The notes below the pieces were generated by a model. It worked only from the letters and a program-made list of their open reading frames with translations. It was not told where the DNA came from and did not search any database. A stretch of DNA of 64,000 nucleotides from a plasmid, in sequence record NZ_CP143948.1; one strand, 5' to 3'. The first letter of the stretch is position 1. Every line of letters starts with the position of its first letter. This document shows, piece after piece, positions 13,781-50,388 of this stretch. A program made the translations under genes and the position numbers.

Positions 13781-15280
13781 CTATGCTTCTCGTTTAGAGT
13801 CCGATTTGGATATTACAAGCCTTGAGTAGCTTACACCATCACTCTTTGTTATCTCTCCATCCAGACTCACCGTATCCTCACCCATGCGCTCATTGGTCTC
13901 CTCCTGCCATAAAAACAGAAGCTTTTCCAGATCCTCCATGGATTCTACAGTCTGTTCATCTGTCACAAACATGCCATCACGCATATTTTTATCTCTGAAG
14001 CTTTGAAGCTCCTTTTTGGTATACAATGGCTTTGGCACAAAATCTGCCATATCATCTTCGCCTGCCGAAGCATCGTCAATAACAAACGGAACAAACTCAC
14101 TTCTTCCTCTCTCTCTTCTTCCCGGAAAGCTGTCGTCCGTTACATTGTAAAACTGTCTGGTGAACTTCATTCTGTTTCGAAGAGCCCCAAGTATCTCATC
14201 TGTTTTATCACTCTTATCTATCAGGTTAATGAGCTTTACTATATTATCCTCGTCATCTGCGCCTTCCTGCAGGATATAGTGTATCCTTGCAAGCGCCCTC
14301 TTTGCAAAAATCGTCTTCTGCTCAATAAGCTTGTTGTACTTTCTCTCAATCAGGTCAAACTCATGCTCCACCTTATAAACAAGCTCACTTGCCTTATCAC
14401 AGTACTCCACGCTGTACTCATAGCGTTTTCTCTCAAACGTACCGGGTGTAGTCTGCGAAAGAATTCCCTCAAGCTCAGCCCTTCTGTCATCGTTCTGATT
14501 GAGGATTTTGCTTATAAGCTCCTTTACAGCCTCCTTATAACGATAAAAGCTATCCGTGGTTGTAAGGATGGCATAACGTCTGCTATCACTGTTATTAATT
14601 TCCTTAATCAGTACCTTCTGTATACCGATAAAATCCTTCATACGTGACAGCTCATCAAAATATGCCCTCATGCCATCCTGCATATTTGATAAAAGCTGAC
14701 CAAGATTTTTTGACGTATACAACGCATTTTTCAGAATATCATTATTTTTTTCCGGGTCTGAAAAATATGTAAAAAGCGCACTGTAAACAGCCAAAATACT
14801 CTCACGCTCCCTGCTGTCATCATCCACAAGCAGCTTTTTAAATAGCTCAGCATACATCTGGCTGTACTGAGGAAATGCAATCACATATGTGTTGAGCTTT
14901 TCATCAAAATCACTCCTGATCCAGCCCCAGTTTATAAGCCTGCCCAATATAGCTGATGGTGTCAGGGTGTATGCGAAGCTGGTCTGGTCATATACATCGA
15001 CAATTTCCAGATCAGAATTATAATCATCATGATTATCCATGCTGTCACTATCTTTATTACTCTCATCTTCATTATAATCAGTCTGCCATACAATGCCTGT
15101 TTTTGATATGGTATCCGCTATGATTATCTGACACTCCTCACGTGTCAGTCCCAGTGATGCATAGACCTCGTTATTCTCCTCATATAACGCAACAACTATC
15201 TGCATGTATGCATCCATATTTTTTGTGCGGAATAAGCTATAAAATTCTTTTGGTATTCTATCTTTTAATGTCATACTCAT
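13781..15280 (-). CDS. JetA/MksF-like (kleisin-type) subunit
   Basis: ~500 aa as first gene of the three-gene operon. Start placed at ATG 15280 (MSMTLKD), after the 14-bp inverted repeat. Assignment rests on synteny and size. Confidence 0.45.
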   Translation of the reverse strand: MSMTLKDRIPKEFYSLFRTKNMDAYMQIVVALYEENNEVYASLGLTREECQIIIADTISKTGIVWQTDYNEDESNKDSDSMDNHDDYNSDLEIVDVYDQTSFAYTLTPSAILGRLINWGWIRSDFDEKLNTYVIAFPQYSQMYAELFKKLLVDDDSRERESILAVYSALFTYFSDPEKNNDILKNALYTSKNLGQLLSNMQDGMRAYFDELSRMKDFIGIQKVLIKEINNSDSRRYAILTTTDSFYRYKEAVKELISKILNQNDDRRAELEGILSQTTPGTFERKRYEYSVEYCDKASELVYKVEHEFDLIERKYNKLIEQKTIFAKRALARIHYILQEGADDEDNIVKLINLIDKSDKTDEILGALRNRMKFTRQFYNVTDDSFPGRRERGRSEFVPFVIDDASAGEDDMADFVPKPLYTKKELQSFRDKNMRDGMFVTDEQTVESMEDLEKLLFLWQEETNERMGEDTVSLDGEITKSDGVSYSRLVISKSDSKREA

Positions 15281-15288
15281 ATAATAAC

Positions 15289-15336
15289 ATATCCCCACGT
15301 TTTTCGCCATATACATGGAAATAAACGTGGGGATAT
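15289..15336 (-). terminator. Perfect 14-bp inverted repeat (ATATCCCCACGTTT / AAACGTGGGGATAT), likely MCP terminator or operator ahead of jetA-like gene
   Basis: Perfect palindrome arms separated by 20 nt, followed by a U-rich run on the minus strand. Lies ~100 nt downstream of the MCP stop. Confidence 0.45.
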
Positions 15337-15436
15337 TAATATTGCTGCTTCACATCTCAGTCTTAACAATAACATCCGGTTACCGTCAAATCACTCCTGA
15401 TTGTGACCATCAATAATTCTATTCAATATAATATGC

Positions 15437-16759
15437 TTACTGCTCAGCAACTCTCAGATGACGTATAAGCTCATTTAAGCTCTCTGCCTCACTGCTCATC
15501 TCCTGACTTGCAGCTGCACACTCCTGTGAAGAAGCTGAGTTAGTCTGAACTACATCGTTAATCTGCTCTACGCCATTATTAATCTGCTTGATAGCATCTG
15601 TCTGTGTCTCAAGTGTCTCTGCGATTCCATTAACCTCATCTGTAATAGTCTTGGAATTGCCTGCAACCTCCTCAAGCTGTGATGCTGTCTTGCCTGCAAT
15701 AACCATTCCTTTTTCAACAGCCTTGACTGAAGACTCGATAAGAGCTGCTGACTCCTTAGCAGCATTTGCACTCTGCTCAGCAAGTACAGTAACCTGATCT
15801 GCTACAACTGCAAAGCCTTTTCCTGCCTCTCCTGCTCTGGCTGCCTCGATAGAAGCATTGAGTGCAAGAAGGTTTGTCTGTGATGCAATCTCATTGATTG
15901 TTGCGATGATTTTACCAATCTCCTGAGATGCCTCATTTATCTCATTCATGGATGTAACCATCTCATGCATCTGTCCGTTGCTATCCATAATCTCAGTTCC
16001 GAGTCCATCAACCTTCTGGCTGATTTCCTTTGCATGCTCGGCATTCTCAGCTACCTGATCCGCTACAGAAGCAAGTGTGGCTGTAAGCTCCTCCACAACG
16101 GCGGCCTGGTCTGTTGCGCCCTGCGCCAGATCACTTGAGCTGGCAGCTACCTGCCCAGCACCGTTTGAAACCTCATTTGCCGCTCTCTGGATACCACTTA
16201 CTGTATCTGACATGCTCTCCTCGAAAGCAACAATTGATTCTTTAATTCCTACAAAATCGCCTTTCCACTCCACCTGTGGCTTAAAGTTGAAATTGCCATC
16301 TGCAAACTGTCTCATAGTCTGGTCGATATCATCAATATATGTGCCAAGTGTCCTGATAGACTTTCTAAGGTCATGTGCAAGTTTGCCAACCTCATCATCT
16401 GAATGATACTCCAGATTGCTGTGAAGATTTCCATTAACAAGCTCTCCTGCCACTACCTCAATCTGCTGTAATGGCTCAAGCACAGAATCAATAACCTGGT
16501 CACTGATTTTTTTTGCAATCATTGTGGCTACAATTCCAACTATTATTACATTAGCCAGTCCTATAATCAGGAAAAACGTAGCAACTGTTCCCGACTCGGC
16601 ACCAAAGATATTAGCCTTTGCACCAAAATAAACCAATAAAACTGCAACAATTGATATGCCTCCCGATACAAGCAGCATATCCAATACTTTCTTATAGCCA
16701 TATTTCAATCTCTGCTGAAGTGGCATTTCCATTATTTTGCTTTTAGCTTCCTCACCCAT
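15437..16759 (-). CDS. Methyl-accepting chemotaxis protein
   Basis: Two N-terminal TM helices, a HAMP domain and the MCP signalling domain with highly conserved methylation-helix repeats. Start at MGEEAKS, 8 nt after an AAGGGAG RBS. Confidence 0.85.
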   Translation of the reverse strand: MGEEAKSKIMEMPLQQRLKYGYKKVLDMLLVSGGISIVAVLLVYFGAKANIFGAESGTVATFFLIIGLANVIIVGIVATMIAKKISDQVIDSVLEPLQQIEVVAGELVNGNLHSNLEYHSDDEVGKLAHDLRKSIRTLGTYIDDIDQTMRQFADGNFNFKPQVEWKGDFVGIKESIVAFEESMSDTVSGIQRAANEVSNGAGQVAASSSDLAQGATDQAAVVEELTATLASVADQVAENAEHAKEISQKVDGLGTEIMDSNGQMHEMVTSMNEINEASQEIGKIIATINEIASQTNLLALNASIEAARAGEAGKGFAVVADQVTVLAEQSANAAKESAALIESSVKAVEKGMVIAGKTASQLEEVAGNSKTITDEVNGIAETLETQTDAIKQINNGVEQINDVVQTNSASSQECAAASQEMSSEAESLNELIRHLRVAEQ

Positions 16760-16921
16760 ATGTAATTCTCCCTTTCTCATTTAGGTTTCGTTCTATACAG
16801 TAAGATTATTATATCATTACCATAGTACTATTTCAATGATAATTTGACAATATTCGTCATTTTTGACATATCGCCTAATTTCGGAAATGATTTATAGTCA
16901 AATACACTAATTTCCCGCTTA

Positions 16922-17224
16922 TTACACCTCGAAATCCATACATGCCCTATTTGCAGTAAATGGTCTCACCTTGGTATCCGCCACTGCAACATGCTTAGGA
17001 TTCTTTGCATACGCTGCAAGTGCATCAGCATCCTCAAATGTAGTATCAAGCATCACATCTACGGTAGATGTCGGAAGATAATCTGTGCGAACTGAAATGT
17101 CGATCATTCCCGGAATCTGTCCCTTAAGTCCCTCTAAGCCTTCCTTTATGCCGGCACGTATTTCAGCCTTCTGTGCCTCTGTGTACTCATCCTTGAGTGT
17201 CCATAAAATAATGTGTTTAACCAT
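16922..17224 (-). CDS. Dabb-family stress-responsive protein
   Basis: 100 aa with N-terminus MVKHIILWTLKDE typical of Dabb/stress-responsive alpha-beta barrel proteins. CAGGAGGAA RBS. Confidence 0.7.
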   Translation of the reverse strand: MVKHIILWTLKDEYTEAQKAEIRAGIKEGLEGLKGQIPGMIDISVRTDYLPTSTVDVMLDTTFEDADALAAYAKNPKHVAVADTKVRPFTANRACMDFEV

Positions 17225-17480
17225 TGTGTTCCTCCTGAGTTTATCAGGTCTTTCGACCAGTCCAAACTATAACATAATAATTTCTTTAATGTTCATCTCT
17301 TCTATAGTTCAAAACCATAAGGTGAATGGAGACCTTTGTATGAATAATATGCCATTCAGACCGCTATGTCAATTACATATTCTACCCCATCGCTTCGTTT
17401 CCTACCCCATTTTGCACCTTTTGTGGCAGAAAACATATTAGGTACAGTTTAGAATACATTTATTATTCAAATCATTTAAT

Positions 17481-18005
17481 TTACATTTCTCTTTTAGCTT
17501 CTACCTTTGTTGCATATTTCCACGTCTTTCCGCAATCTTTTGAATAGATACTTTCCCAACTAAATGTATCCTTCTCAATATTTTTGAAATTCCATTGCCA
17601 TATAGTTGTATCATTCGCATCTTTATTAATCCCTGTTTGTATAATATCATTCTCCAATTCTTCGGCGATTAACCTATCAACACTCCATTTGGAAACGTAC
17701 ACTATATTCCACTTTTTTGAATTATCTATCATTGGAACTCGTATTGTTGTTCCATAATCTCCGTATAAAGTATCTTCCTCTGTCCATTCTCCTCTTTTGG
17801 GACAAATGAAGACATCTTGAATTCCATACCCATCCATGACATATGAAAAAAGCCACTCACCTTCTTTTGTATCTTCAATCTTCCCCTCTTCATCATATGT
17901 AGTCATTGTAAACGACCAATTTCCAACAAATCTACTATACAATGATAAATCTGTGTTATTATTCGCATTATTGCTTCCTAATGCTTCTAAAAATTCATTT
18001 TTCAT
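17481..18005 (-). CDS. Hypothetical protein (Trp-rich, AT-rich gene)
   Basis: 174 aa with no recognisable domain. GC content is lower than neighbouring genes. Confidence 0.45.
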   Translation of the reverse strand: MKNEFLEALGSNNANNNTDLSLYSRFVGNWSFTMTTYDEEGKIEDTKEGEWLFSYVMDGYGIQDVFICPKRGEWTEEDTLYGDYGTTIRVPMIDNSKKWNIVYVSKWSVDRLIAEELENDIIQTGINKDANDTTIWQWNFKNIEKDTFSWESIYSKDCGKTWKYATKVEAKREM

Positions 18006-18038
18006 TAGCGTACACTCTCCTCCCGATAAACATGTTGC

Positions 18039-18560
18039 TTATTTATCATTTGTAGTAATTGAATAAACAACCAAATCCCTATATTCCCCTGTGTTTTTAT
18101 CAATTCTTCTTTTTCTTAAAACCCCATCCTTAATAAAACCTACCTTTTCAAGCAGATTAAGCGAAGGTTTATTATCTATATTACATTTTGCCTCAATGAG
18201 ATACAGTCTATCTTTTGACAAGTATTCTGAAATCATCTTTTTTACAGCTTCAGTGCCATAACCTTTACCATGCCACTTTTCACCAATAACATAACCAATT
18301 TCACCAATCCTTAATTCTTGATATGGTATATCAAAAGATATATATCCTATACATGCACCACTTTCTTTTTCAACAATTACCCATGCATTCGTATTTTTCA
18401 CCATAGCATTTACAAAAGAATTCATCTGATCCATATTCATTGGATATCCCATTATAAAATCACCCAAATGCTCATCTGTCCCCCATCCCTCGAAGCATAT
18501 TGAAGCATCTTCATTCACAAAATGGCGGATGTATAATCGCTCTGTTTCTATTTTCATCAT
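18039..18560 (-). CDS. GNAT family N-acetyltransferase
   Basis: 173 aa with acetyl-CoA binding motif (KWHGKGYGTEAVKKMI) typical of the RimJ/RimL-like GNAT fold. Confidence 0.8.
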   Translation of the reverse strand: MMKIETERLYIRHFVNEDASICFEGWGTDEHLGDFIMGYPMNMDQMNSFVNAMVKNTNAWVIVEKESGACIGYISFDIPYQELRIGEIGYVIGEKWHGKGYGTEAVKKMISEYLSKDRLYLIEAKCNIDNKPSLNLLEKVGFIKDGVLRKRRIDKNTGEYRDLVVYSITTNDK

Positions 18561-18637
18561 AAAAATCCTTTTCCATCTACATTATGACTTGGCACCACTA
18601 CATCAATTAATCCTACTATAACATACTTTTAAACTGT

Positions 18638-18672
18638 AAAAAAGGGTTTCCGAGAAATCTCGGAAACCCTTG
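18638..18672 (-). terminator. Rho-independent terminator downstream of the displaced tuf 3-prime fragment
   Basis: GGGTTTCCGAG-aaat-CTCGGAAACCC stem followed by a T6 run on the minus strand. Confidence 0.45.
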
Positions 18673-18705
18673 AATTTACTAGATATTTACACTACTAACA
18701 AGTAA

Positions 18706-18759
18706 TTACTCGATAACTGTAGCAACACGTCCAGAACCTACTGTACGTCCACCCTCACG
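18706..18759 (-). repeat. Direct repeat (left copy): orphan duplicate of the last 17 codons plus stop of tuf
   Basis: 54 bp, 53/54 identical to 22460..22513, same orientation. The single difference (GGA to GGT) is synonymous. Encodes [17 protein letters not shown]. Confidence 0.85.
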
Positions 18760-18862
18760 ATACTTTAATATCATTTTACCTCATATTTTTTATGGTTTTC
18801 TCTCCAAAATACAGTGAAAAACGACTGATTTGTACTATTTATTTTTATTTGCCTGATTTCTT

Positions 18863-18879
18863 GGCACCGTTTTGGCACC
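18863..18879 (+). repeat. GGCACC-N5-GGCACC 17-bp motif (left copy)
   Basis: Exact 17-mer GGCACCGTTTTGGCACC, also present at 22248..22264. Confidence 0.7.
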
Positions 18880-18979
18880 GGAAGCCTCAGTCAAAAAGCT
18901 TCTCTTCTGCTGTTTATACTCTTCTCTATCAGCTTTAATTTATAGCCAAAAAGCAGCCAGTTTTTCATATAAATAATTT

Positions 18980-20239
18980 CTAATAACTTTTATCGCCTTT
19001 CTTCAAAGGAGAAAACGTAATCTTATTTGCCAAAAGAAAAAGAATTATTATTACAATACCAAATCCCACAAAAAGTGAACTTGTATCAACAACAGTAACT
19101 TTGTATATAATACTAATCACAAAAGATACCACTGGCGCGCATGCGTATGTAAGTGAAAATCGAATTGCAGAAACACGTCCTATATATTCTTTAGTAACTT
19201 CTTTTACAAATTTCACTTGTACATAAGTAATCATTAATCCCAATGCTGCACCAATTATTATCGAACCGATTAGCAACAGTAATTTTTGAGTTATAGGATT
19301 TGCAATATATTTTGAAACAAATGCAATAAAAACATAGTATACACCTAAAACAATTCCACAAAATGTAACAAGTGTATTATTTTTTTTCTCCTCTTTCATT
19401 TTTGCAAAAGTCAATGATCCCAAAATAGTACCAATAGTTACGCTTACACTTAGTAATGAAACAATTTTGGCATCTCCACTAAACATTTCTCTTGCAATCG
19501 GGGCGAGCAGTGCATCAAATGGAACCACTGCTGAATTAATTAGAATACATAAAAAACATAGTTTTAATAGCTTCTTATGGTCAAATACATAACTAAATCC
19601 ATCTCTAAGCGAAATTAAATATTCTCTGCCAATTATTCGGTTTGTCTTCTTTTCTTCTTGAACAGAAAATTCTATTTTTACTATAAGCAACGCTGATATT
19701 AAAAATATCAAAGCATCTATCGCTAAAGAAATACCTATTCCAAATGAACTAATCACTATGCCTGACAAGCCAGTTCCAACTAATACTGCTATTTTGGTAC
19801 AAGACACATTGACACTTACACCTTTATCATAATGTTCATTAGGAAGTACATGCTGAATAACTGCTACCCCTGCTGGCATATGAAATGCTTCTATTAATGA
19901 AATGGATATTGTCATAAAAACCAATATTAATGGTGAAAGCATGTTTTGTGTATATACATATAATATATACAAAACTAACAGAACTCGAGCTATATCTGAA
20001 AGTACTAACACTTTCTTTTTATTCATATTCTCGACTAATGGACCTATAAATGGTTGAATAATTACAGAAGTAGCTTGATTAATACCAAAAATAATCGCAG
20101 ACCACCCTGCACTATTTGTAAGTAAATATACCAACCATGTAAAAAGTATTGTATCTAATGAATCACCACAGCGGTTAATAATATTAGAAGTCAGCAGATA
20201 AACATAATTGTGGTTATGATATAACTCATGTTTATTCAT
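18980..20239 (-). CDS. MFS transporter (putative RiPP exporter)
   Basis: ~12 predicted TM helices. Start taken at ATG 20239 (MNKHELYH), after an AGAGAGG RBS. An upstream ATG at 20260 overlaps the rSAM stop (ATGA). Confidence 0.7.
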   Translation of the reverse strand: MNKHELYHNHNYVYLLTSNIINRCGDSLDTILFTWLVYLLTNSAGWSAIIFGINQATSVIIQPFIGPLVENMNKKKVLVLSDIARVLLVLYILYVYTQNMLSPLILVFMTISISLIEAFHMPAGVAVIQHVLPNEHYDKGVSVNVSCTKIAVLVGTGLSGIVISSFGIGISLAIDALIFLISALLIVKIEFSVQEEKKTNRIIGREYLISLRDGFSYVFDHKKLLKLCFLCILINSAVVPFDALLAPIAREMFSGDAKIVSLLSVSVTIGTILGSLTFAKMKEEKKNNTLVTFCGIVLGVYYVFIAFVSKYIANPITQKLLLLIGSIIIGAALGLMITYVQVKFVKEVTKEYIGRVSAIRFSLTYACAPVVSFVISIIYKVTVVDTSSLFVGFGIVIIILFLLANKITFSPLKKGDKSY

Positions 20240-20256
20240 ATTTGTTACCTCTCTAA

Positions 20257-21411
20257 TCATAATTTAGATTGTTTAATTTCGCAAGCTATCTTATAAAGAT
20301 CCTGATGTTTTAAAGCCGCTGCTTTTTCTATAACATTATCAATTTCTGATATATCATTAAGTGATTCCAAATATTTTTTCCATTTTTTCATTTCAACATT
20401 ATATGCACAGTATCTATTTTCACTTTCAAATGAGCCGTTAATGCAATAACGACTATTACTACATCCTCCTAAGCATCGTTCTGTATAACGACATTCTCTG
20501 CAAAATCCTTTTAACTTACTACTATCAAAATTTCTATTCCACTTAAAAGAGTCCGGACTTTCCCAAATCGACTTTAAAGATTTTTCACGAATATTTCCCG
20601 CTACTAATGTTTTATCTCTAATAGAAGTACAAGCAACAATATCTCCATTATGCAGAATACCAATTACATGCTTTCCTGCTCCACAACCTGTCCAAGACCA
20701 ATTATCATTAAGAAAATTCTCATTTACTTTTATATCTTTATTGCTATAATAACCTATGCAATCTGCCAAAACAATTAACAACTTACCTCCAATTTTATTA
20801 TATGCAAAATCAATAATAGAAAGAATATCTTGAGGTTCTATAAGCCATTCTGGGCGTTTTGCAAAATTCCCCATTGGTAATGCAATCTGTAACTGCCAAC
20901 TATTAACTCCCAAATCACTTAATAATTGATATAGTTCTTCCAATTCACATATATTTTCTTTATTTATTGAAGTTATTACTGATGTCGAAATATTATTTTT
21001 TCTTAATTCTTTCAATGCTTTAATACTTTTATTGAATGATCCCGATCTCCGTATAAAATCGTGAGTTTTTTCAAGACCATCAATACTTAAACAGACACTT
21101 CTAATTCCTGATGTTATCGCATTATGAATAAAGTTTTCATCAATCAACCAACCATTTGTAATAATACTTGTTATTATGCCATTATCTACTAATCTTTTCG
21201 CAATAATATGCCAGTCACTACGTGTCGTAGGTTCCCCTCCAGATAATGTAATAACTTTTAATCCCAAATCTTTTAATTGGTCACACACCTCAAGAGCTTC
21301 TGATGTATTCAACTCATCGGGTAGCGCTTCTGCACAACTTGAACCGCAATGTTTACAACGCATATTACAACCCATTGTTATTTCCCATACAGCTGTAGTT
21401 AATTTATTCAT
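20257..21411 (-). CDS. Radical SAM / SPASM-domain peptide-modifying enzyme
   Basis: CNMRCKHCG (CxxxCxxC) cluster, GGEP motif and a C-terminal Cys-rich SPASM region (CGAGKH...CRECRYTERCLGGCSNSRYC). 384 aa. AGGAGAG RBS. Confidence 0.85.
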   Translation of the reverse strand: MNKLTTAVWEITMGCNMRCKHCGSSCAEALPDELNTSEALEVCDQLKDLGLKVITLSGGEPTTRSDWHIIAKRLVDNGIITSIITNGWLIDENFIHNAITSGIRSVCLSIDGLEKTHDFIRRSGSFNKSIKALKELRKNNISTSVITSINKENICELEELYQLLSDLGVNSWQLQIALPMGNFAKRPEWLIEPQDILSIIDFAYNKIGGKLLIVLADCIGYYSNKDIKVNENFLNDNWSWTGCGAGKHVIGILHNGDIVACTSIRDKTLVAGNIREKSLKSIWESPDSFKWNRNFDSSKLKGFCRECRYTERCLGGCSNSRYCINGSFESENRYCAYNVEMKKWKKYLESLNDISEIDNVIEKAAALKHQDLYKIACEIKQSKL

Positions 21412-21492
21412 ATATTCTCTCCTATAATCCTTTTTAAATAAAAAAGACCTACTCTATATTTCTTTTTACATAGAGCAAGTCTTTTCTACAAA

Positions 21493-21600
21493 CTACATTC
21501 TCACACCTGTTCCGTACATAACTGGTCCAAATAAGTTCTTAGAGGTTTTTAATTCAGAAATCTTTACAAACTCCAAGCTCAATTCTTCAAGATTAAACAT
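21493..21600 (-). CDS. Candidate RiPP precursor peptide (35 aa, no Cys): MFNLEELSLEFVKISELKTSKNLFGPVMYGTGVRM
   Basis: Strong GGGAGGTG RBS 7 nt upstream of ATG 21600. A TTGACA-17-TATTCT promoter-like sequence lies inside the longer ORF-track call (21493..21699), so that call is over-extended. Sits immediately upstream of the rSAM gene with a hairpin plus T-run between them. Confidence 0.5.
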   Translation of the reverse strand: MFNLEELSLEFVKISELKTSKNLFGPVMYGTGVRM

Positions 21601-21757
21601 TTTTATCCACCTCCCGTTTATTGAATTTATCTTAAGAATACATCTCTTATTTTCAAATGTCAAGTTATTTTCATTATTTTTCCCAAATTTCGAGTTCAAA
21701 TTCTCGTTTTATTTGTAACATATTTTCCATTTTCTACGCATACATCAGATCTCTTAA

Positions 21758-22201
21758 CCACTTATAAATGTCCGTAAAATTGCAAAAGCAACTGGAATCA
21801 GTGCTACAACCTTATATTCAATCATTCAAAAAGATTCCAATATTCGATTTGATTTTGCTTTAAGACTTGCAAACGAATTGCAAATTGATGTGAATGAGAT
21901 ATGTTCTGCCAGTCCATTTTCTGACACAATTAAGGAAGAAGAGATTTATCCTACACTTCCAGACGGTTTGAACGGAGCCTTAGACGCAAGTCGTGTAAAG
22001 ACTTACTTAAAAAATTCTATGTATCCGTTGATGTATCTTTTTGGCAAAAATAGTATGCCTGATGTAGATAATCTACTTACATCATTCTATCAGCTTGATG
22101 ATGAAGCCAGACAGGAAGTTGTAGAAACAATCCGTCTGAAACTGCAATATCATCGAGATCCGAAACGTGCTGAACAGATCAAGCAGATTAAAGGTTGGTA
22201 A
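21758..22201 (+). CDS. XRE-family HTH regulator (start unresolved; possible N-terminal truncation or frameshift)
   Basis: Clear helix-turn-helix reading IAKATGISATTLYSIIQKDSNIRFDFALRLANEL in frame with ORF 21878..22201. No ATG/GTG/TTG is found between the in-frame stop at 21755 and the TTG at 21878. Divergent from the precursor gene. Confidence 0.4.
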   Translation, partial: PLINVRKIAKATGISATTLYSIIQKDSNIRFDFALRLANELQIDVNEICSASPFSDTIKEEEIYPTLPDGLNGALDASRVKTYLKNSMYPLMYLFGKNSMPDVDNLLTSFYQLDDEARQEVVETIRLKLQYHRDPKRAEQIKQIKGW

Positions 22202-22205
22202 AAAA

Positions 22206-22247
22206 TCACTCCTGTGAATGGCAAACATTCGCAGGAGTTTCTTTTTG
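22206..22247 (+). terminator. Terminator after the HTH gene
   Basis: CTCCTG...GCAGGAG stem followed by TTTCTTTTT. Confidence 0.4.
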
Positions 22248-22264
22248 GGCACCGTTTTGGCACC
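22248..22264 (+). repeat. GGCACC-N5-GGCACC 17-bp motif (right copy)
   Basis: Exact copy of 18863..18879. Confidence 0.7.
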
Positions 22265-22370
22265 ACTGGTCTTATTTTTCAATTTTAAATTTATCTGTAT
22301 TTTATCTTGCTGATAAATATTTCGCTATTTCTCTACTTATAATTTTTCAAATCATTCTCTCTTTAAGATA

Positions 22371-22401
22371 CAGAAAAACCCGTAGAACCGAAGTTCTACG
22401 G
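22371..22401 (-). terminator. tuf rho-independent terminator
   Basis: CCCGTAGAAC-cgaa-GTTCTACGGG stem followed by a U5 run on the minus strand, ~60 nt after the tuf stop. Confidence 0.6.
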
Positions 22402-22459
22402 GTATCTTACGTTTAGACACAACGTTATCTTACGATAACAAATCCATATTAAGATTGTA

Positions 22460-22513
22460 TTACTCGATAACTGTAGCAACACGTCCAGATCCTACTGTAC
22501 GTCCACCCTCACG
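22460..22513 (-). repeat. Direct repeat (right copy) = 3-prime end of intact tuf
   Basis: See 18706..18759. Confidence 0.85.
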
Positions 22514-23647
22514 GATAGCGAATGTAAGACCCTGCTCCATAGCTACTGGATGGATGAGCTCGATTGTCATCTCTACGTTATCACCAGGCATGCACATCTC
22601 TGTTCCTGCTGGAAGCTCGCAAACACCTGTTACGTCTGTTGTTCTGAAGTAGAACTGTGGACGATAGTTGTTGAAGAATGGAGTATGACGTCCACCCTCG
22701 TCCTTTGTAAGAACGTAAACCTGAGCCGTAAACTTATGGTGACATGTTACTGTACCAGGCTTAGCAAGAACCTGTCCACGAACGATCTGGTCACGGTTAA
22801 TACCACGGAGAAGTGCTCCGATGTTATCACCAGCCTGAGCCTCGTCTAACTGCTTACGGAACATCTCGATTCCAGTAACAACAGTCTTCTGAACGTCCTC
22901 TTTAACACCAAGGATCTCTAACTCGTCGTTGAGGTGAAGTGTACCACGCTCTACTCTACCAGTTGCAACAGTACCACGACCTGTGATTGTGAATACGTCC
23001 TCTACTGGCATAAGGAATGGCTTATCTGTATCACGCTGTGGATCTGGGATATAAGAATCAACAGTATCCATAAGCTCCATGATCTTGTCTCCCCAAGGTC
23101 CCATTGGATCCTCAAGAGCCTTAAGAGCTGATCCCTGGATGATTGGGCAATCATTGAATCCGTACTCCTCAAGCTGCTCTGTAACTTCCATCTCTACGAG
23201 CTCGATAAGCTCTGGGTCGTCAACCATATCACACTTGTTAAGGAATACGATGATGTAAGGAACACCTACCTGACGAGAAAGGAGGATGTGCTCCTTTGTC
23301 TGAGCCATAACACCATCAGTAGCAGCAACAACAAGGATAGCACCATCCATCTGAGCTGCACCAGTGATCATGTTCTTTACGTAGTCAGCATGTCCAGGAC
23401 AGTCAACGTGTGCGTAATGTCTCTTTTCTGTCTCATACTCAACGTGAGCTGTAGAAATTGTGATTCCACGCTCTCTCTCCTCTGGAGCCTTATCAATGTT
23501 AGCGAAATCTGTAGCTGTGTTACCAGCGACACGAGCTGCTAATACTGCTGTAATAGCTGCTGTTAAAGTTGTTTTACCATGATCTACGTGACCGATGGTA
23601 CCAATATTACAATGTGGTTTTGTTCTTTCAAATTTAGCCTTTGCCAT
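22460..23647 (-). CDS. tuf: Elongation factor Tu
   Basis: [27 protein letters not shown]. 395 aa, full length. Confidence 0.97.
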
Positions 23648-23857
23648 TTTGAAACGTCCTCCTTAAACTTTTATGCCCCATGGGCTATTTTTATAATCTA
23701 CCGACTGCTTTGATTATACGAAATAATCAAAGTTTTTTCAAGTAAATTTTACGGCAAATCCCCCTTTTTCAAGGGGAAATGCCTTTATTTTTGATTTTTA
23801 TACCATATATAGTATATATTTCATCATTTGTACTATAAATTGTTTGCTAATTTGCAA

Positions 23858-25975
23858 TTATTTTGCGTGGTTAGCAAGCACCTTGTCCTGTACATTCTTT
23901 GGAACCGGCTCATATCTGTCGAAGAACATTGAGTAGTTTCCACGTCCCTGTGTCTTAGAACGAAGGTCTGTAGAGTAACCGAACATCTCTGCAAGTGGTA
24001 CATATGCATGTACAATCTTTCCACCGCCGAGATCGTCCATACCCTCGATACGTCCACGACGAGAGTTAACATCACCGATAACGTCTCCCATGTACTCCTC
24101 AGGCATTGTAACCTCTACCTTCATGATAGGCTCAAGTAATACAGGTGCAGCCTTTGCCATAGCCTCTTTGAAACACATAGATCCGGCAATGTGGAATGCC
24201 ATCTCTGATGAATCGACCTCATGGTAAGATCCATCGTATACTGTTGCATGGATACCAACTACCGGGAATCCACCAAGAGAACCGGCCTTTGTAGCCTCCT
24301 CGATACCTTCGCCGATTGATGGGATGTACTCCTTTGGAATAGCACCACCGACAACCTCTGAATCGAACTTGAAAAGCTCTTCTCCATTGGCATCCATTGG
24401 CTCGAAGCGTACCTTACAGTGTCCGTACTGTCCACGTCCACCTGACTGCTTAGCATATTTGTATTCCTGATCAACAGCCTTTGTAAATGTCTCCTTGTAA
24501 GCAACCTGAGGTGCACCAACGTTTGCCTCAACCTTGAACTCACGGAGAAGACGGTCAACGATGATCTCAAGGTGAAGCTCACCCATACCAGCGATGATTG
24601 TCTGACCTGTTTCCTGATCAGTATGAGCACGGAATGTAGGATCCTCCTCTGCAAGCTTTGCAAGAGCCTCACCTAACTTGCCCTGTCCAGCTTTTGTCTT
24701 AGGCTCGATAGCGAGCTCGATAACTGGCTCTGGGAACTCCATAGACTCAAGGATAACCGGATGCTGCTCATCACAGATTGTATCACCTGTTGTTGTGAAC
24801 TTAAATCCAACAGCAGCAGCGATATCACCTGAGTAAACCTCATCCAACTCCTGTCTCTTATTAGCATGCATCTGAAGAATACGTCCGATACGCTCTTTCT
24901 TATCCTTTGTTGCATTTAATACATATGATCCTGCCTTACATTTTCCTGAGTAAACACGGAAGAATGCAAGCTTTCCTACAAATGGATCTGCCATGATCTT
25001 GAATGCAAGTGCTGAGAATGGCTCATCATCTGATGAATGTCTCTCAATCTCATTTCCCTCAAGATCTGTTCCCTTGATTGAAGGGATATCTGTAGGAGCT
25101 GGCATGTACTCAACGATAGCGTCAAGTAACTTCTGTACACCCTTGTTACGGTATGCAGAACCACAACATACAGGTACTGCTGTACACTCACATGTTGCTT
25201 TACGAAGAACCTTCTTCATATCCTCTACAGATGGCTCCTCACCCTCAAGATACTGCATCATGAGATCGTCATCTAACTCACAGATTTTCTCAATAAGCTC
25301 TGTACGGTACTCTGCAGCCTGATCAGCCATATCTCCAAGATCATCAGTAACTGTGATATCGTCACCCTTCTCATCATTGTAGATATATGCCTTCATCTCG
25401 AAAAGGTCGATAATTCCTTTGAAATCGTCCTCTTTACCGATTGGTAACTGAAGTACGATAGCATTTTTTCCTAATCTTGTACGGATCTGGTCAACAGCTC
25501 CGTAGAAGTTTGCACCTAAGATATCCATCTTATTGATGAATGCCATACGAGGTACATTGTATGTGTCAGCCTGACGCCAAACGTTCTCTGACTGAGGCTC
25601 AACACCACCCTTTGCACAGAACACACCAACTGCGCCATCAAGTACACGGAGTGAACGCTCAACTTCTACTGTGAAGTCAACGTGGCCCGGTGTATCGATG
25701 ATGTTGATACGATGCTCAAGTGCTCCTGGCTTTGGTTTAGTGAACTCTTCAAGTGTCCAGTGACATGTTGTAGCGGCAGAAGTAATTGTAATACCTCTTT
25801 CCTGCTCCTGCTCCATCCAGTCCATGGTAGCAGTACCTTCATGAGTATCACCGATTTTATAGTTAATACCAGTATAATAAAGAATACGCTCTGTCAGTGT
25901 TGTTTTACCAGCATCGATATGAGCCATGATTCCAATATTTCTGGTTCTCTCAAGTGGATATTCTCTTCCAGCCAA
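23858..25975 (-). CDS. fusA: Elongation factor G
   Basis: 705 aa. N-terminus [14 protein letters not shown] and full EF-G domain order. Confidence 0.97.
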
Positions 25976-44460: not shown

Positions 44461-45106
44461 CTCCCATATCATAGCAAATATCACATTTTTTCTTTACATA
44501 ATCCGAGTGGGTTACTACTATAACACATCTGTCCTGTTCATGAGCTATCTGCTGTAACAATTCGACAATTTTTCTTCGATTTTCTTTATCCAGATTACCT
44601 GTAGGCTCATCTGCCAGAATATATTTTGCATCTGTTATCAACGCCCTCGCTATTGCAACTCTTTGCTGCTGTCCACCTGACAATTCCGTAACCTTTCTGG
44701 TTATCTGACTATCATCAAGTCCAACCATCACTAGGCTGTCTCTACACATTTTTATCAATTCTTTTTTGGGTACATCAGGTAAGCTTATCTGGGCTGCAAC
44801 CATTACATTTTCAAGAGAAGTCATATAATCAAATAACTGATAATCCTGAAAAACCAATGATATACTATTTTGGCGCAGTTTTCTTCCACCAATGTCTTGT
44901 ATATTTTCTCCATCCAGCAAAATTTCCCCTTCATCCGGTTTTTCTAAACCGGCAAGTAACGATAAGCACGTTGTCTTTCCTGAACCTGACGGACCAAATA
45001 TTCCATACATTTCTCCTATTTCAAATCTGTATGTAACTTTATCCAGTACATGCACAATTTCCTTCTTTGATTTATATGCATACGATACATTAATCATTTC
45101 CAACAT
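44444..45106 (-). CDS. ABC transporter ATP-binding protein
   Basis: Walker A (GPSGSGKTT), signature ([15 protein letters not shown]) and Walker B ([11 protein letters not shown]). Confidence 0.88.
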
Positions 45107-45114
45107 ATTTACCA

Positions 45115-46440: not shown

Positions 46441-46470
46441 ATCCCATCTCCTCAATACTACCAAACATTA

Positions 46471-46497
46471 AAAAAGCCATAGACATCTATGGCTTTA
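46471..46497 (-). terminator. Hairpin plus T-run downstream of the int gene
   Basis: GCCATAG-acatc-TATGGC stem followed by T6 on the minus strand. Confidence 0.4.
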
Positions 46498-46719
46498 CAA
46501 TACTATATACATATAAAGAATAACCTGAAAAATCATTTAAGAATTATAAATAAATTATATATGTCTTTTTGACTATCTTTTTATATCTTCTTAAATGTCC
46601 GCAAAGCCTTATTTTATCGGCTCTACGGGCATTTTGCTTTTGTGGTAAACCTCACATATCTAGGTCTATCTTCTTATATTTTCGCTATCAAGCGTGGTTA
46701 AAATCGTGGTAAATACTTT

Positions 46720-47913
46720 TTATGCAATTAGACGCTGAACCTCTGATTTTGCAGTATCTATGGACGCATGAGCATACCAGTTCATTGTGATACTGATATT
46801 TGAATGCCCCATGATATACTGTAAATCTTTCGGGTTCATGTTCTTGCTTGCCAGCCTTGTGCAGAACGTATGACGTAGCGTATGCGGTGTGATATGTGGC
46901 AAGGGGTTATCCTTATGGTGCTTGTTGTATTTCCTTACCATACGGACAAATAAAGTGCTGTAATCAATCGCAACTTTGGGCTTGCCCTTATGATTGACAA
47001 ATAGAAAGTTGCTCCGTCCGTCTATCACAAATGGTTCTGCCTTTGGGCGTTTCTTCATAACCCGTTGAAATGCTTGTATCGTTTCCTTGCTTAATGGCAC
47101 TTGCCTTGTTCCGCTCTTTGTCTTAGGCGTTTCAATATAGTAGCCCTGTTCCTTGCTCTTTAATAACTGGTGGTCGATAATCACAACTTCATTCTTGAAA
47201 TCAATATCGGCTACTGTCAGTCCGCACAGTTCCGAGATACGAAGTCCAGTCTTTAACAGTATCAGCACATCATCATAATACTTGTGATACACATTGTCCG
47301 TCTTGATGAATGAGAGTAGGGCTTGTTCTTGCTCCTCTGTCAATGCCACTTTCTCTTTGGTATCATTTTCTAGGACTTCACTTAACTTGAAATCAAAGGG
47401 ATTTTTCCTTACATAATCGTCTTGTATGGCGATATAGAATGACGCTTTTAACGAGCGTTTATGGTTGTTAATGGTATTGTAGGAAAAGCCTTTGTCTTTC
47501 ATGCGTAACGCCCATTCCTTAGCGTCAGAGGGTTTTATCATATCAATGCTCCTAGCACCTAACTTATCCTCTTTCAATAACCGCATGAGTTGTTCCCGTT
47601 GTTTTATTGTGCTTTTCTTCACGTTTGCCCTCTGTGCGTTCTGTTTGGCGTAGAGTTGGCAAAGCGTCATTTTCTTGCCTGTGCTGTCGATACCGTCCTC
47701 AATATCCCGTCTTATCTGCTGTTCCAGTTCACGAAGTGAGGGTTTTTCCCGTTTTCCCTTTGGTGTCGGGTCTGTGGGTGTCAATCTCCAAGCATACACA
47801 TATTTTGTGTTTCCAAATGCGTCTACATATTTATATAAGTATTTTCCGTCTGTTCGTTGGCTCTCTCCAGTATGCAGGATACGTCCTTTGCTATCCCGTC
47901 TTTTTTCTTTCAT
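46720..47913 (-). CDS. int: Tyrosine site-specific integrase, Tn916 Int-Tn family
   Basis: 397 aa. Strikingly similar end to end to Tn916 Int (MKEKRRDSKGRILHTGESQR...HTLRHTFCT...YIMGHSNISITMNWYAH). Confidence 0.92.
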   Translation of the reverse strand: MKEKRRDSKGRILHTGESQRTDGKYLYKYVDAFGNTKYVYAWRLTPTDPTPKGKREKPSLRELEQQIRRDIEDGIDSTGKKMTLCQLYAKQNAQRANVKKSTIKQREQLMRLLKEDKLGARSIDMIKPSDAKEWALRMKDKGFSYNTINNHKRSLKASFYIAIQDDYVRKNPFDFKLSEVLENDTKEKVALTEEQEQALLSFIKTDNVYHKYYDDVLILLKTGLRISELCGLTVADIDFKNEVVIIDHQLLKSKEQGYYIETPKTKSGTRQVPLSKETIQAFQRVMKKRPKAEPFVIDGRSNFLFVNHKGKPKVAIDYSTLFVRMVRKYNKHHKDNPLPHITPHTLRHTFCTRLASKNMNPKDLQYIMGHSNISITMNWYAHASIDTAKSEVQRLIA

Positions 47914-47991: not shown

Positions 47992-48195
47992 TTAGATTGC
48001 GTCCAATTTATCAATAACCTTTTCAAATTGTCGGCGTTTAATCTGTATGCGGTTGCCATTCATAATGAGCCAGCCAGCGTCCTTGTTTTCCTCTGCCAAG
48101 CGTCTTAACTTGTTTTCTCCGATACGGAAATACTTTGACGCTTCTTCAATGGTAAGGGTGTATTTTTCCCATACAGGAATATCGTTGTTATTCAT
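47992..48195 (-). CDS. xis: Excisionase, Tn916 Xis-Tn family
   Basis: 67 aa, near-identical in pattern to Tn916 Xis ([34 protein letters not shown]...[13 protein letters not shown]). Confidence 0.9.
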
Positions 48196-49205
48196 CAGAT
48201 ACCCCCTTTCCCATGTTTCGTGTCATACTGGATATAGGGGATAAGGTCGGTGCGGTCTATCCTCTGTAAGTGGGCGGTTAGTTTGCTGGAAAGGGAATTG
48301 CTGTATCTTGCCTTATCAAGCATAGTTCCCACTTTTTCCAGTCCACCTAATGCGTCATGTTCTTCTAAGAAGTAAAAACTTTTGACAGCGGAAATGACGC
48401 CACCCTCTGTGAGCCATTGCTGTGTTTCTTCAAGAGAATTATGTAGTTTCGGTACTTGCAGTTTCAAGACTTCCACAGCCCCTAAAAAGCGTTCCCAAAA
48501 CCGACACGTTTTCCATCTGCTCTTATTACTTTCATTTCTGTTTGGCACGACAAAGCGTAGGTTGTTTGCCAATAGCCCGAAAGCCAGTTTCCCAAGTTCC
48601 AGCGGTCTGTTTTTGAATGTCATGGCAAAAGCATGAGCCTTATCATCACGCAGTTGCATTTCTGTCCGTTTCCAACTGCCGACTTCATCAAGTGTCTTAT
48701 TATGTTTTGAACAGACTTCCTTATCTTTATCATAAAAGCGGTAGGACAATCCCGATTTACCAGCACCGATATAAACGGTCTTTGCGGTGTCGAAATCATC
48801 AAACTTGCTTTCGTCAAAGTGGTAGCCCTCACTATTCGAGATAAATTCCTCTTTTTCGCATTTCTTCTTTATCTGCTCTATGGTAAAGAATGGCTTTTCG
48901 TTCTTATCATCAATGGCAATATCAAGTCTTGTGAAATGGAAGTTATCCAGTCCGTATCTTCGCTCACAGCGTCGGAACATATCCCCAAAGGTATAATTCC
49001 TACTGTCGAGAATACGGAAAATATCATCACAACCTCTGCCAGTCATAACAAGATAACAGCCTAGTCCTTGTGGGTTGTCCTCTGTCTTTTTTGCGTCCCC
49101 CGATACATAAATATCTCCAATCTGCCAGCGTGCTTGATAAGTCTTGAATTTTATCGTTGCTGGATAAACATTGAAAATGTCAGTCGGTAAACCTAAAATG
49201 TGCAT
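48195..49205 (-). CDS. Putative replication-initiator / Rep_trans-type relaxase of the IME
   Basis: 336 aa immediately upstream of xis, the position held by Rep_trans relaxases in many IMEs. The domain call rests on size and position and is not verified. Confidence 0.35.
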
Positions 49206-49209
49206 GATT

Positions 49210-49752: not shown

Positions 49753-50388
49753 ATGGAGCATTACGAAAAGAAAATCAGTTTCTTAGGAGAGAACATACAG
49801 ACCATAAGAAAACACAGAGGAATGAAACAACAAGAACTTGCGGACAAAATCGGTATCAATATGCAGAGCCTTTCCAAGATTGAACGAGGTGTGAATTATC
49901 CTACCTTTGATACATTAGAAAAGATAATGGACGTGCTGGGTGTAACGCCCAATGAATTATTATCGGGAGAATGGAAGTATGTTAATCAAGCCGAAAAGGA
50001 AGTCTGTCAGTTTTTAAGAATTGAAGAAAGACTAAATGCAGAACTGAAACATGGGCATTATGACAATTTCTTTGACAGCGAGGAAGAATGGCTGGAATAT
50101 GAGTTAGAGAAGTTACGGGAATATATTACCGACTACATCAACGGGAAAAGCATTGTAGCGTCCGACCTTTACCCAATCAAAGAATTTATCCAGCATTTGA
50201 AATTTCAAAAACTGTTAGACCGCTATGATGATTTATACAGCATGGATATGTTCGGGGAAAGCATAGAGGGGCATAAATATAGGACACCATATCAAGTCGT
50301 AAAAATGATAAACCCCAATTCAAAAGAAGATATGGAATTATTACGGGAAGTATTGAAAAATAACCATTTTGATGATGAGGACGAATAG
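49753..50388 (+). CDS. XRE-family transcriptional regulator
   Basis: N-terminal HTH (IRKHRGMKQQELADKIGINMQSLSKIERG) plus ~140-aa C-terminal domain. AAAGGAG RBS. Confidence 0.85.
   Translation: MEHYEKKISFLGENIQTIRKHRGMKQQELADKIGINMQSLSKIERGVNYPTFDTLEKIMDVLGVTPNELLSGEWKYVNQAEKEVCQFLRIEERLNAELKHGHYDNFFDSEEEWLEYELEKLREYITDYINGKSIVASDLYPIKEFIQHLKFQKLLDRYDDLYSMDMFGESIEGHKYRTPYQVVKMINPNSKEDMELLREVLKNNHFDDEDE

Follow-up and report, generated by a model that had tools for sequence, protein, structure and literature searches.

A definition of cis-mobilizable elements (CIMEs) and an accretion model are available from earlier work (PMC5704250), and ICEs and IMEs of Firmicutes commonly integrate at the 3′ ends of housekeeping protein genes (PMC5704250). 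The closest described systems are the CIMEs of Streptococcus thermophilus, which are related to ICESt1/ICESt3 and lie at the 3′ end of fda (Pavlovic 2004, Bellanger 2011, summarised in PMC5704250). Their attL and attR contain the 3′ end of the housekeeping gene, and both att sites are kept although integrase, excisionase and transfer genes have been lost. They are found in tandem (accretion) with intact relatives, and deletions across internal att sites fuse neighbours. Streptococcal IMEs with a single tyrosine integrase target the 3′ ends of ribosomal or housekeeping genes, such as IMESag-rpsI (PMC5090054; surveys PMC5357655, PMC5704250).

Here we describe an island of ~3.7 kb that lies directly 3′ of tuf, between two copies of a core, in a 64-kb stretch of record NZ_CP143948.1 (the window). 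Our comparisons suggest, with a probability of roughly 0.85, that it is a CIME, a non-autonomous remnant of a fam1-type IME. It resembles the S. thermophilus CIMEs in its att sites, gene losses and tandem arrangements. It differs in its target (tuf rather than fda), in its probable progenitor (a Mob_Pre-relaxase IME rather than a self-transmissible ICE), in its Lachnospiraceae (Agathobacter) host and in its radical-SAM peptide cargo. The streptococcal CIMEs have been shown to excise and to be mobilised in cis; for the tuf island both steps are predicted from sequence. CIMEs and 3′-end targets are already known in Firmicutes, and the tuf island adds another case; only tuf as the target appears to be unreported, the word being absent from the main text of the ICE/IME reviews and surveys found by our literature search. 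The preliminary description had considered a protein-coding target unusual, a view that does not hold because such targets are common among Firmicute ICEs and IMEs (PMC5704250). Islands and prophages at tRNA/tmRNA 3′ ends also bring a copy of the gene end, and the target gene is thereby restored on integration; unlike theirs, the target here is protein-coding, and ARAGORN found no tRNA or tmRNA in the window.

The target gene and the island comprise the following features.

22460..23647, minus strand: tuf (EF-Tu, 395 aa; Pfam GTP_EFTU, GTP_EFTU_D2, GTP_EFTU_D3), the target and final gene of the rpsL-rpsG-fusA-tuf operon
22459..22513, minus strand: tuf-proximal att core (attL, B-O-P′), completing tuf; from repeat search and translation
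22365..22458, minus strand: element-supplied tuf 3′ UTR, the 'type A' left end, with a GNRA-loop hairpin and an intrinsic terminator (stem 22378-22403)
22245..22264, minus strand: left arm-type motif GGTGCCAAAACGGTGCC(C), presumed site of the integrase N-terminal domain; from repeat and motif search
21767..22201, plus strand: 5′-truncated XRE/cI-like repressor pseudogene (HTH′), lacking the first 16 codons and a start codon
21635..21663, minus strand: sigma-70-like promoter (TTGACA-17-TATTCT) upstream of the precursor gene; a consensus match only (10/12)
21493..21600, minus strand: ORF for a putative precursor peptide, MFNLEELSLEFVKISELKTSKNLFGPVMYGTGVRM (35 aa, no Cys)
20257..21411, minus strand: radical SAM/SPASM peptide maturase, 384 aa (Pfam Radical_SAM, SPASM)
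18980..20260, minus strand: MFS transporter, 426 aa by ORF and 419 aa as called (Pfam MFS_1, MFS_3)
18860..18879, minus strand: right arm-type motif GGTGCCAAAACGGTGCCAAG, ~101 nt before the distal core
18705..18759, minus strand: distal att core (attR, P-O-B′), an orphan tuf 3′ fragment; from repeat search and translation

Upstream of tuf lie fusA, rpsG, rpsL and rpoC. A repeat search of the window returned a single 55-nt direct repeat, at 18705-18759 and 22459-22513 (54/55 identical, start-to-start spacing 3754 nt), which consists of the final 17 codons of tuf, the stop codon and one further base. The preliminary description had reported a 54-bp duplication in the same orientation; the duplication and its orientation are real, and the repeat is one base longer because the T after the stop codon is also common to both copies. 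Translated on the minus strand, both give the same 17 residues of the tuf C-terminus, and the sole mismatch (GGA versus GGT) encodes glycine in either copy and is synonymous, as previously stated. A near-perfect repeat of 55 nt within 64 kb far exceeds what chance would produce. Repeat search and locus comparison found no tuf similarity outside the 55 nt at 18705-18759, and this copy is thus an orphan fragment. The other copy completes an intact gene for a 395-aa EF-Tu with three Pfam domains. A distinct strong intrinsic terminator follows each core on the minus strand (−26.8 kcal/mol, z = −6.5 after the orphan; −31.3 kcal/mol, z = −4.7 after tuf), and the earlier account of an orphan and an intact gene with different terminators is borne out. 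The 'type A' flank also opens other elements in many species. There were no Rfam matches in 17000-24000.

A second repeat, GGCACCGTTTTGGCACC, absent from the preliminary description, has just two copies in the window, one close to either end of the island (0 expected). Within the 64 kb, GGTGCCAAAACGGTGCC is found at the two island ends only (chance expectation 0), and the four exact TTGGCACC octamers of the window all lie in the region downstream of tuf. The right motif keeps its position and sequence in fam1 right ends (L004, L048, L077, L115, L075), and in several species the left ends of fam1 IMEs keep the left motif at ~86 nt from the core. On the island the left motif stands 195 nt from the core versus 86 nt in the intact fam1 IMEs, a displacement that might impair assembly of the recombination complex. 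Position and conservation suggest that the integrase would bind at these arm motifs. Lambda-type tyrosine integrases have separate arm-type and core-type binding sites. Similarly, the intact relatives of the island encode an N-terminal Arm-DNA-bind_4 domain, and each of their arms carries a short direct-repeat motif whose distance to the core is fixed. Unlike in the lambda-type systems, the identity block of the tuf core is long (55 bp) and lies inside a coding region, and the arm sites are putative.

Pfam and NCBIfam scans of all island ORFs revealed no integrase, excisionase, replication or relaxase genes in 18705-22513, and tblastn with IME proteins recovered only the repressor fragment, in agreement with the earlier statement that no integrase lies between the copies. 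The only integrase in the 64-kb window is of Tn916 type (26% identical) and not cognate. The repressor fragment HTH′, which has its own terminator at 22208-22238, matches Pfam HTH_3 at profile positions 13-54 only and shares 90% amino-acid identity with residues 17-160 of the IME repressor HTH160. It is 95.5% identical at the nucleotide level to a closer IME fragment (L151, MT839806.1), and this homology ends at 21766.

The place of the lost IME genes is occupied by a 2.9-kb module of precursor, radical-SAM/SPASM and MFS genes. The 35-aa precursor is annotated as a gene in many assemblies and has no Pfam or NCBIfam match. The top NCBIfam matches of the maturase are all RiPP maturases under their cut-offs (best TIGR04103, 235 bits versus a cut-off of 725), and the transporter, a probable exporter judging by its sequence, matches an H+ antiporter subfamily below cut-off. 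Sactipeptide, ranthipeptide, nif11-class, GDL-motif, WgkB and darobactin/dynobactin assignments were rejected, with the maturase below all cut-offs and the precursor carrying no class motif or family match. The lack of cysteine in the precursor means that its product is neither a sactipeptide nor a ranthipeptide. We infer that the cargo yields a secreted modified peptide. The module is decaying in some strains, with a deletion in the radical-SAM gene in L009 and 336-aa forms of the protein elsewhere.

In other Agathobacter strains, the interval from tuf to the island is occupied by intact IMEs, which form tandems with the island and have ends homologous to its ends. At this site, L004, L008, L015, L029, L127 and L150 have elements that encode tyrosine integrase, excisionase and Mob_Pre relaxase. 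The gene order of the fam1 IME is repressor, excisionase, integrase with arm-binding domain, AAA_25 replication protein, Mob_Pre relaxase, TnpV and cargo. The L004 and L008 integrases have Phage_int_SAM_3 and Phage_integrase domains (L008 additionally Arm-DNA-bind_4), and both elements also contain Mob_Pre and TnpV genes; the fam1 integrase has no NCBIfam equivalog match. Between the L004 IME (~7.6 kb core-to-core) and the island lies a middle att copy. The island matches IME ends at 77% over 507 nt on the repressor side and 81% over 178 nt at the right end. These observations support the earlier proposal that an element integrated at the gene's 3′ end and brought a replacement end, and they give a positive answer to the question, also raised there, of whether the island occurs with an integrase elsewhere. 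The IMEs of L004, L008 and L015 resemble the streptococcal IMEs in being small, in encoding tyrosine integrase, excisionase and relaxase, and in integrating at the 3′ end of a gene with a role in translation, which stays intact; one of the flanking repeats contains the gene end. The island in the window has none of the genes that define them.

An IME has its own integrase and a relaxase or oriT, which the neighbours in other strains possess and the island lacks. Expected of a CIME are att repeats, absence of mobility genes, derivation from an IME by deletion and tandem occurrence with an intact element, all of which were found; the tandems occur in other strains (L008 and L020 included), and the window itself has none. 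A decayed remnant and an element mobilised in trans had been offered as alternatives, but the CIME definition covers both. In L022, a deletion across an internal att fuses the adjoining elements.

Past the distal core, outside the att-flanked island and in the same array, lies a second segment.

17443..18704, minus strand: second remnant of variable DNA
about 18634-18671: terminator within this segment
18589-18596: lone GGTGCCAA motif, reading TTGGCACC on the plus strand
18039..18560, minus strand: GNAT gene within this segment
17481..18005, minus strand: 174-aa ORF within this segment

Homology between the window and L001 and L005 is lost precisely at 18705 and picks up again at 17442. The first ~110 nt of the segment resemble the fam1 IME left end, its GC content is low (0.33), and differences between strains start at the first base past the core. 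In three different arrays (L140, L020, L072), the last core is followed by the same ~430 nt into a Dabb gene. The sequences thus indicate that the ancestral order is tuf, terminator, Dabb gene. GNAT, previously taken as the native neighbour, is part of variable DNA whose start coincides exactly with the att boundary. Two contigs from this species or a close relative, L026 and L027, carry only one tuf end and lack the island. Island-free sites, which the preliminary description had proposed to look for, do exist, but the ancestral order has Dabb and not GNAT after the terminator. No occupied/empty pair with the distal flank of the window was found, and the flank past the distal core varies by strain.

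We propose the following account of the origin and movement of the island. Sequence comparison shows that a fam1-type IME, whose tyrosine integrase would recombine a 55-bp core identical to the end of the gene, inserted at the tuf 3′ end. Insertion kept tuf intact with the element's 3′ UTR and terminator and displaced the second core to the far end. An internal rearrangement then deleted the DNA from repressor codon 16 (breakpoint 21766/21767) through ~176 nt before the right end (~18880), leaving both att cores, both arm-type motifs and the 2.9-kb module. Int and Xis of a related IME could still excise and integrate the island, which would travel as an IME-CIME composite, excised as a unit and mobilised by the relaxase of the IME through a conjugation pore supplied by a helper. 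The predicted junction of the excised circle is …GATATTAAAGTAT-core-TACAATCTTAATATGG…. The island may be mobile at present. Island-core-island junctions are present in two metagenome contigs, L143 (0.39x coverage) and L130 (joining two core variants). Both may have arisen during assembly: a k-mer of 55, commonly used by assemblers, is as long as the core, the coverage of L143 is low and the cores of L130 are mixed.

The island is 99.2% identical in Gallintestinimicrobium propionicum, where the flanking DNA has ~52% GC and the island does not adjoin tuf but is embedded in a composite with both att copies. In Blautia caecimuris DSM 29492, it is 99.6% identical. Core variants differ by host. Recent movement between genera is the likely reading of these sequences. 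Among 93 matching stretches from Lachnospiraceae species representatives there were 28 orphan att copies, with recurrent right-end types, probably left by at least five integrase lineages; integrase or excisionase genes adjoin tuf in at least ten species, and a single scaffold of Roseburia sp. AM59-24XD carries three cores. The island was found in 10/10 contexts sampled via identical EF-Tu protein, in a strain sample that is skewed to long contigs and from which the island frequency is not derivable. The exact radical-SAM protein occurs in more than 44,000 indexed blocks of the assembly collection, and the cassette is therefore very widespread.

The island might instead be a dead fossil of site-specific origin, no longer excisable and spread within larger segments or by homologous recombination rather than through recognition of its own att sites. 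The window has no cognate integrase, the left arm motif is displaced, the 10/10 occurrence resembles near-fixation, some strains have a decaying cargo, and the G. propionicum copy sits away from tuf inside a composite. However, the cores have been kept at 54/55 and both arm motifs are exact although the remaining ancestral element is lost. The identity across three genera, the host-specific core variants, the island-free contigs in the same species or a close relative and the compatible IMEs in tandem also argue against a fossil, which we consider unlikely, if far from negligible. Remains of a prophage or a PICI-like phage satellite, rather than of a conjugatively mobilised element, are much less probable. 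The cI-like repressor fragment, the excisionase and the tyrosine integrase do make up a module that temperate phages share, and MT839806.1, the nearest public fragment, bears the label 'Bacteriophage sp.'. This entry has an UNVERIFIED flag and no annotation; it codes for an integrase, a replication protein and the first part of a Mob_Pre relaxase, and no phage structural or packaging genes occur in the available sequence. Full relatives contain Mob_Pre and TnpV but lack capsid, terminase and primase-packaging genes; the right-end-plus-core pattern of the island is absent from the viral contig collection, and the phage-database match is limited to the MT839806.1 fragment.

Many Clostridia have two tuf genes, and the orphan fragment is in frame and in the orientation of tuf. 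These points would fit a second, decayed tuf (tufA/tufB paralogy, raised in the preliminary description) with ordinary chromosomal genes in between. Similarity, however, ends abruptly at exactly 55 nt, and core boundaries are identical in every locus and element compared, including orphans in 27 stretches of other genomes, where the element ends that precede them are of at least five unrelated kinds. The region between the copies has IME-derived ends and is missing from L026 and L027. The boundary data refute a decayed paralog, whose probability we put near zero. Equally implausible is a duplication created by assembly or by a transposon. The repeat does match a common assembler k-mer, but over 20 independent assemblies, some of them with multi-megabase contigs, show the two-copy arrangement, as do isolate genomes. 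Its 55 bp far exceed any transposase target duplication, and the island ends have neither a transposase nor inverted terminal repeats.

The tuf island leaves the concept of how such elements work unchanged. If the CIME explanation holds, it would account for a biosynthetic cluster free of mobility genes that is 99% identical in three genera, and tuf would join the housekeeping docking sites of Firmicute mobile elements. Orphan CGTGARGGTGGACGTACAGTAGG…ATCGAGTAA copies would then be a marker delimiting IMEs, CIMEs and arrays in poorly annotated Lachnospiraceae. Few bacteria of the human gut are as abundant as Agathobacter (the Eubacterium rectale group). As a tentative joint reading, which we regard as possible though rather doubtful, the last 55 bp of tuf may be a Lachnospiraceae-wide hotspot for at least five diverged integrase lineages, with the cassette hitch-hiking between gut genera beside docked IMEs. 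If so, the elements would swap the 3′ UTR and terminator of an essential gene that ranks among the most highly expressed in the cell, their conserved 'type A' hairpin behind the tuf stop could affect the EF-Tu mRNA as well, and the cassette, hitch-hiking among Agathobacter, Blautia and Gallintestinimicrobium, would be a selfish minimal vehicle for a secreted modified peptide.

The end of tuf is present twice in the window. A repeat search returned a 55-nt direct repeat (18705-18759 and 22459-22513, starts 3754 nt apart, 54 of 55 positions identical), both copies of which translate on the minus strand into the same 17 terminal tuf residues; the sole mismatch is GGA versus GGT, a glycine codon in either case. 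The preliminary description of a duplicated tuf end with one synonymous change is right, except that the repeat is one base longer than the 54 bp it gave. An intact tuf (22460..23647, minus strand, encoding a 395-aa EF-Tu) ends in the right copy and is preceded by fusA, rpsG, rpsL and rpoC. A strong terminator hairpin follows each copy, and the two hairpins are not alike, as had been described. No tuf similarity runs past the left copy, which is therefore an orphan, and a decayed tuf paralog is rejected on the same ground. A target-site duplication was also considered for the repeat and rejected. Variants within the repeat (positions 6, 13, 24 and 48) do not consistently distinguish proximal from distal copies, so they are uninformative on the crossover point and crossover mapping from them was dropped.

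The repeat, referred to here as the core, bounds an island with the following contents.

Features between the two cores
22365-22458, after the tuf stop codon: structured tuf 3' UTR (~95 nt) and terminator
22245-22264, next in the direction of tuf transcription: motif GGTGCCAAAACGGTGCC, left copy
Opposite strand to tuf: XRE/cI-type repressor gene without start codon and without the first HTH helix
Downstream of the repressor remnant in the tuf direction: promoter-like site, then a 35-aa ORF, MFNLEELSLEFVKISELKTSKNLFGPVMYGTGVRM
After the 35-aa ORF: 384-aa radical-SAM/SPASM enzyme, then an MFS transporter
18860-18879, with the orphan core 101 nt further on: motif GGTGCCAAAACGGTGCC, right copy

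The 17-mer motif occurs exactly twice in the 64 kb, with none expected by chance, and the window's four exact TTGGCACC octamers are all in the region downstream of tuf. These GGTGCC repeats may be arm-type sites bound by the N-terminal domain of an integrase. The GC content is 0.30-0.33 in the island region versus 0.42-0.48 in the flanking operon. The Pfam HTH_3 match of the repressor remnant is restricted to profile positions 13-54. As cargo, the island carries an uncharacterised radical-SAM peptide cluster, whose 35-aa precursor is Cys-free and whose maturase scores far under all curated NCBIfam family cut-offs. Pfam and NCBIfam scans, together with homology searches using proteins of integrative mobilizable elements (IMEs), found no integrase in the island, as previously noted, and likewise no excisionase or relaxase.

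The sequence right after the tuf stop codon (22365-22459, minus strand) is conserved and structured, with a GTTATC-GYAA-GATAAC hairpin followed by the terminator. The same flank is found in other compared loci (L051, L052, L055, L070, L095, L104, L108 and others), where it starts many different elements, and in several genera it lies directly behind tuf. The GNRA hairpin has a single compensatory change and the terminator stem has several; in an RNAalifold analysis of 13 variants, covariation was weak outside that stem. An Rfam scan of 17000-24000 at E<=1 gave no match, and the flank is therefore not a described RNA family.

To trace the origin of the island, we compared 30 loci of related strains, found as contigs encoding identical EF-Tu, radical-SAM and Dabb proteins. 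Among species-representative genomes, the closest bear the label Agathobacter (99.2% and 98.5% identity). A complete small element lies between tuf and the island in loci L004, L008 (whose contig continues in L020), L015 and L029. Its gene order in L004 and L008 is that of an IME: a 160-aa repressor, a 64-aa excisionase, a tyrosine integrase, an AAA_25 replication protein, a Mob_Pre relaxase, TnpV and cargo. The excisionase resembles that of ICEBs1 below the family cut-off, and the L008 integrase (360 aa) carries an Arm-DNA-bind_4 domain. In L004, the core is found at the tuf end and again between the IME and the island, and the GGTGCC motif lies 86 nt past the left core and 101 nt before the right core of the IME.

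The ends of the island are those of such an IME. Its repressor side is 77% identical to the IME over 507 nt, its last 176 nt match the IME right end at 81% identity, and its repressor fragment shares 90% amino-acid identity with residues 17-160 of the IME repressor. A closer relative is MT839806.1, a human-faeces scaffold with the GenBank label unverified 'Bacteriophage sp.'; it shares 95.5% DNA identity with the repressor fragment, and this homology ends at 21766, exactly where the island reading frame starts. The IME-like ends and this breakpoint indicate that the island is an IME backbone with internal loss. Everything from repressor codon 16 to ~176 nt before the right end has been lost, and the 2.9-kb peptide module now occupies its place. 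The alignments thus demonstrate the loss of mobility genes from within an element that retained both cores and both arm motifs.

MT839806.1 encodes a repressor, an excisionase, an integrase (81% identical to that of L008), a replication protein and the start of a relaxase; although deposited as a phage, it is a fragment of a tuf-targeting IME and not recognisable as a phage. A 201-nt stretch of it was the sole match in a megablast of the island against phage records. The same search against PLSDB plasmids gave no match, and a scan of IMG/VR viral contigs for the island right end plus core found none. The window also contains an unrelated mobile element at 43186-50388, which includes ABC/FtsX transporter genes and the genes listed here.

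Genes of the second mobile element
46720..47913, minus strand: Tn916-type tyrosine integrase with Integrase_DNA and Phage_integrase domains
48195..49205: Rep_trans rolling-circle protein
49753..50388: XRE regulator

The integrase of this element shares only 26% identity with the one that targets tuf.

An islandless site, proposed earlier as a check, was found in two contigs (L026 and L027), which have a single tuf end with a different terminator, no island and no orphan copy; the flanking DNA of L027 is 96-99.5% identical to that of locus L001. In three independent contigs (L140, L020 and L072), different element ends lead up to the last core of the array, after which the same ~430 nt of terminator and intergenic sequence runs straight into the Dabb gene. 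As judged from this shared stretch, the ancestral order is tuf, terminator, Dabb. The GNAT gene, which had been taken for the native neighbour, is not: it belongs to a 1.26-kb segment (17443-18704) that is replaced by different DNA in other strains, beginning at the first base past the core. The start of this segment resembles the left end of the IME type described here (the same terminator, a single GGTGCCAA motif), and the segment is therefore a further remnant in the same array; no degenerate third att copy was found at its far end, around 17442. Taken together, the sequence comparisons demonstrate integration at the 55-bp core, with the tuf terminator supplied by the element.

A Wadjet-type defence operon (JetA, JetB and a JetC-like SMC ATPase; ~13781-15316 and below) lies just past the Dabb and chemotaxis-receptor genes, in a region collinear with locus L002 from 18368 onward. 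The variable array downstream of tuf therefore adjoins a defence locus. The variable segment of L027 contains a GmrSD gene.

Copies of the island were also found outside this lineage. Two Gallintestinimicrobium propionicum-type assemblies (L118, which carries the name, and L017, which has the same left flank) contain it at 99.2% identity over 3.8 kb, in flanking DNA of ~52% GC. Both cores there differ from the window core at 8 positions, and no tuf gene was found within 8.9 kb upstream. In L017 (8897-15836) and L118, the island is followed by a 3.1-kb remnant with the element-supplied tuf 3' UTR and terminator as its left end, an rve transposase and the right end of another element type (fam2). 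The array ends at …GGTCTGATATC/AATAGAATGC next to a tRNA gene, where no core is present. It could reflect secondary-site integration of a composite, in which case strands would be exchanged at the core's 5' edge. A further copy, in Blautia caecimuris DSM 29492, shares 99.6% identity with the island over the available 1.7 kb. The comparisons thus document tandem accretion with intact IMEs, presence/absence polymorphism and near-identical copies in three genera.

Several arrays are rearranged in ways typical of such arrays. In L022 (1-2854), an IME (Mob_Pre, TnpV, truncated epimerase) is fused to the island MFS gene by a deletion that removed the internal core and the radical-SAM gene; L020 has an IS91-family (Y2_Tnp) transposase gene and an adjacent integrase gene at the expected position of the internal core. 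L003 carries a 1.9-kb group II intron (RVT_1, GIIM; 15016-16922) immediately 3' of the distal terminator hairpin (window 18632), and L009 a 940-bp deletion at 12426 within the radical-SAM gene (window 20282-21221). The radical-SAM protein is 336 aa long in several strains, and the radical-SAM genes of L004, L023 and L030 are also among the decay and fusion variants.

For an excised circle (junction …AAAATGATATTAAAGTAT-core-TACAATCTTAATATGG…), metagenome contigs were scanned for the order right end, core, left end. Nearly all of the 27 contigs returned have the island with a further element behind it whose left end is similar. Just two, both from human gut metagenomes, join island to island: L143 (2707 nt, coverage 0.39x) and L130 (6776 nt, two such junctions 3754 nt apart with different core variants). 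These may be circles or tandem copies, or misjoins via the 55-nt repeat; they carry no weight, because the core is as long as the usual assembly k-mer, L143 has only that low coverage and L130 joins two different core variants.

With a degenerate pattern for the core, 93 matching stretches were found in species-representative genomes; almost all are from Lachnospiraceae (Agathobacter, Roseburia, Lachnospira, Dorea, Sellimonas, Blautia, Anaerostipes and others). The core copies comprise 64 that end a tuf gene, 28 orphans in 27 stretches and 2 that are not assignable. A few right-end types recur in front of the orphans, all meeting the core at the same nucleotide, and one scaffold of Roseburia sp. 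AM59-24XD carries three cores (~30.8, 40.7 and 48.9 kb). At least 10 species carry integrase or excisionase homologues immediately downstream of tuf; the tuf-adjacent integrase lineages are 38-99% identical to that of the IME type described here, and some are oppositely oriented. Thus, the tuf end is a much-used docking site in Lachnospiraceae. Core matches also occur in bins labelled Bacteroidaceae, Bacteroidales, Treponemataceae and Senegalimassilia (L039, L047, L049, L053, L091 and L103). Because several of these encode Lachnospiraceae-like EF-Tu, up to 99% identical to that of the window, they are probably binning contaminants and not inter-phylum transfers.

We propose a model for the island. 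It may still be excised by the integrase and excisionase of a neighbouring IME, and would spread within the composite via the IME relaxase and a helper conjugation system. A review of IMEs (PMC5704250) describes exactly the series of events matched here: an element integrates at the 3' end of a housekeeping gene, decays to a cis-mobilizable element (CIME) with attL and attR retained, and is then joined by an incoming element (accretion). The review also cites a demonstration of cis-mobilisation in Streptococcus thermophilus. Judged by its sequence, the island has every sequence-level hallmark of a CIME. We found no report of tuf or EF-Tu as an integration site in a full-text literature search whose coverage leaves out most subscription journals. 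Since the series of events is known and this target was not found reported, the island is a new example and not a new mechanism: a well-documented CIME at an apparently unreported target in an abundant gut bacterium.
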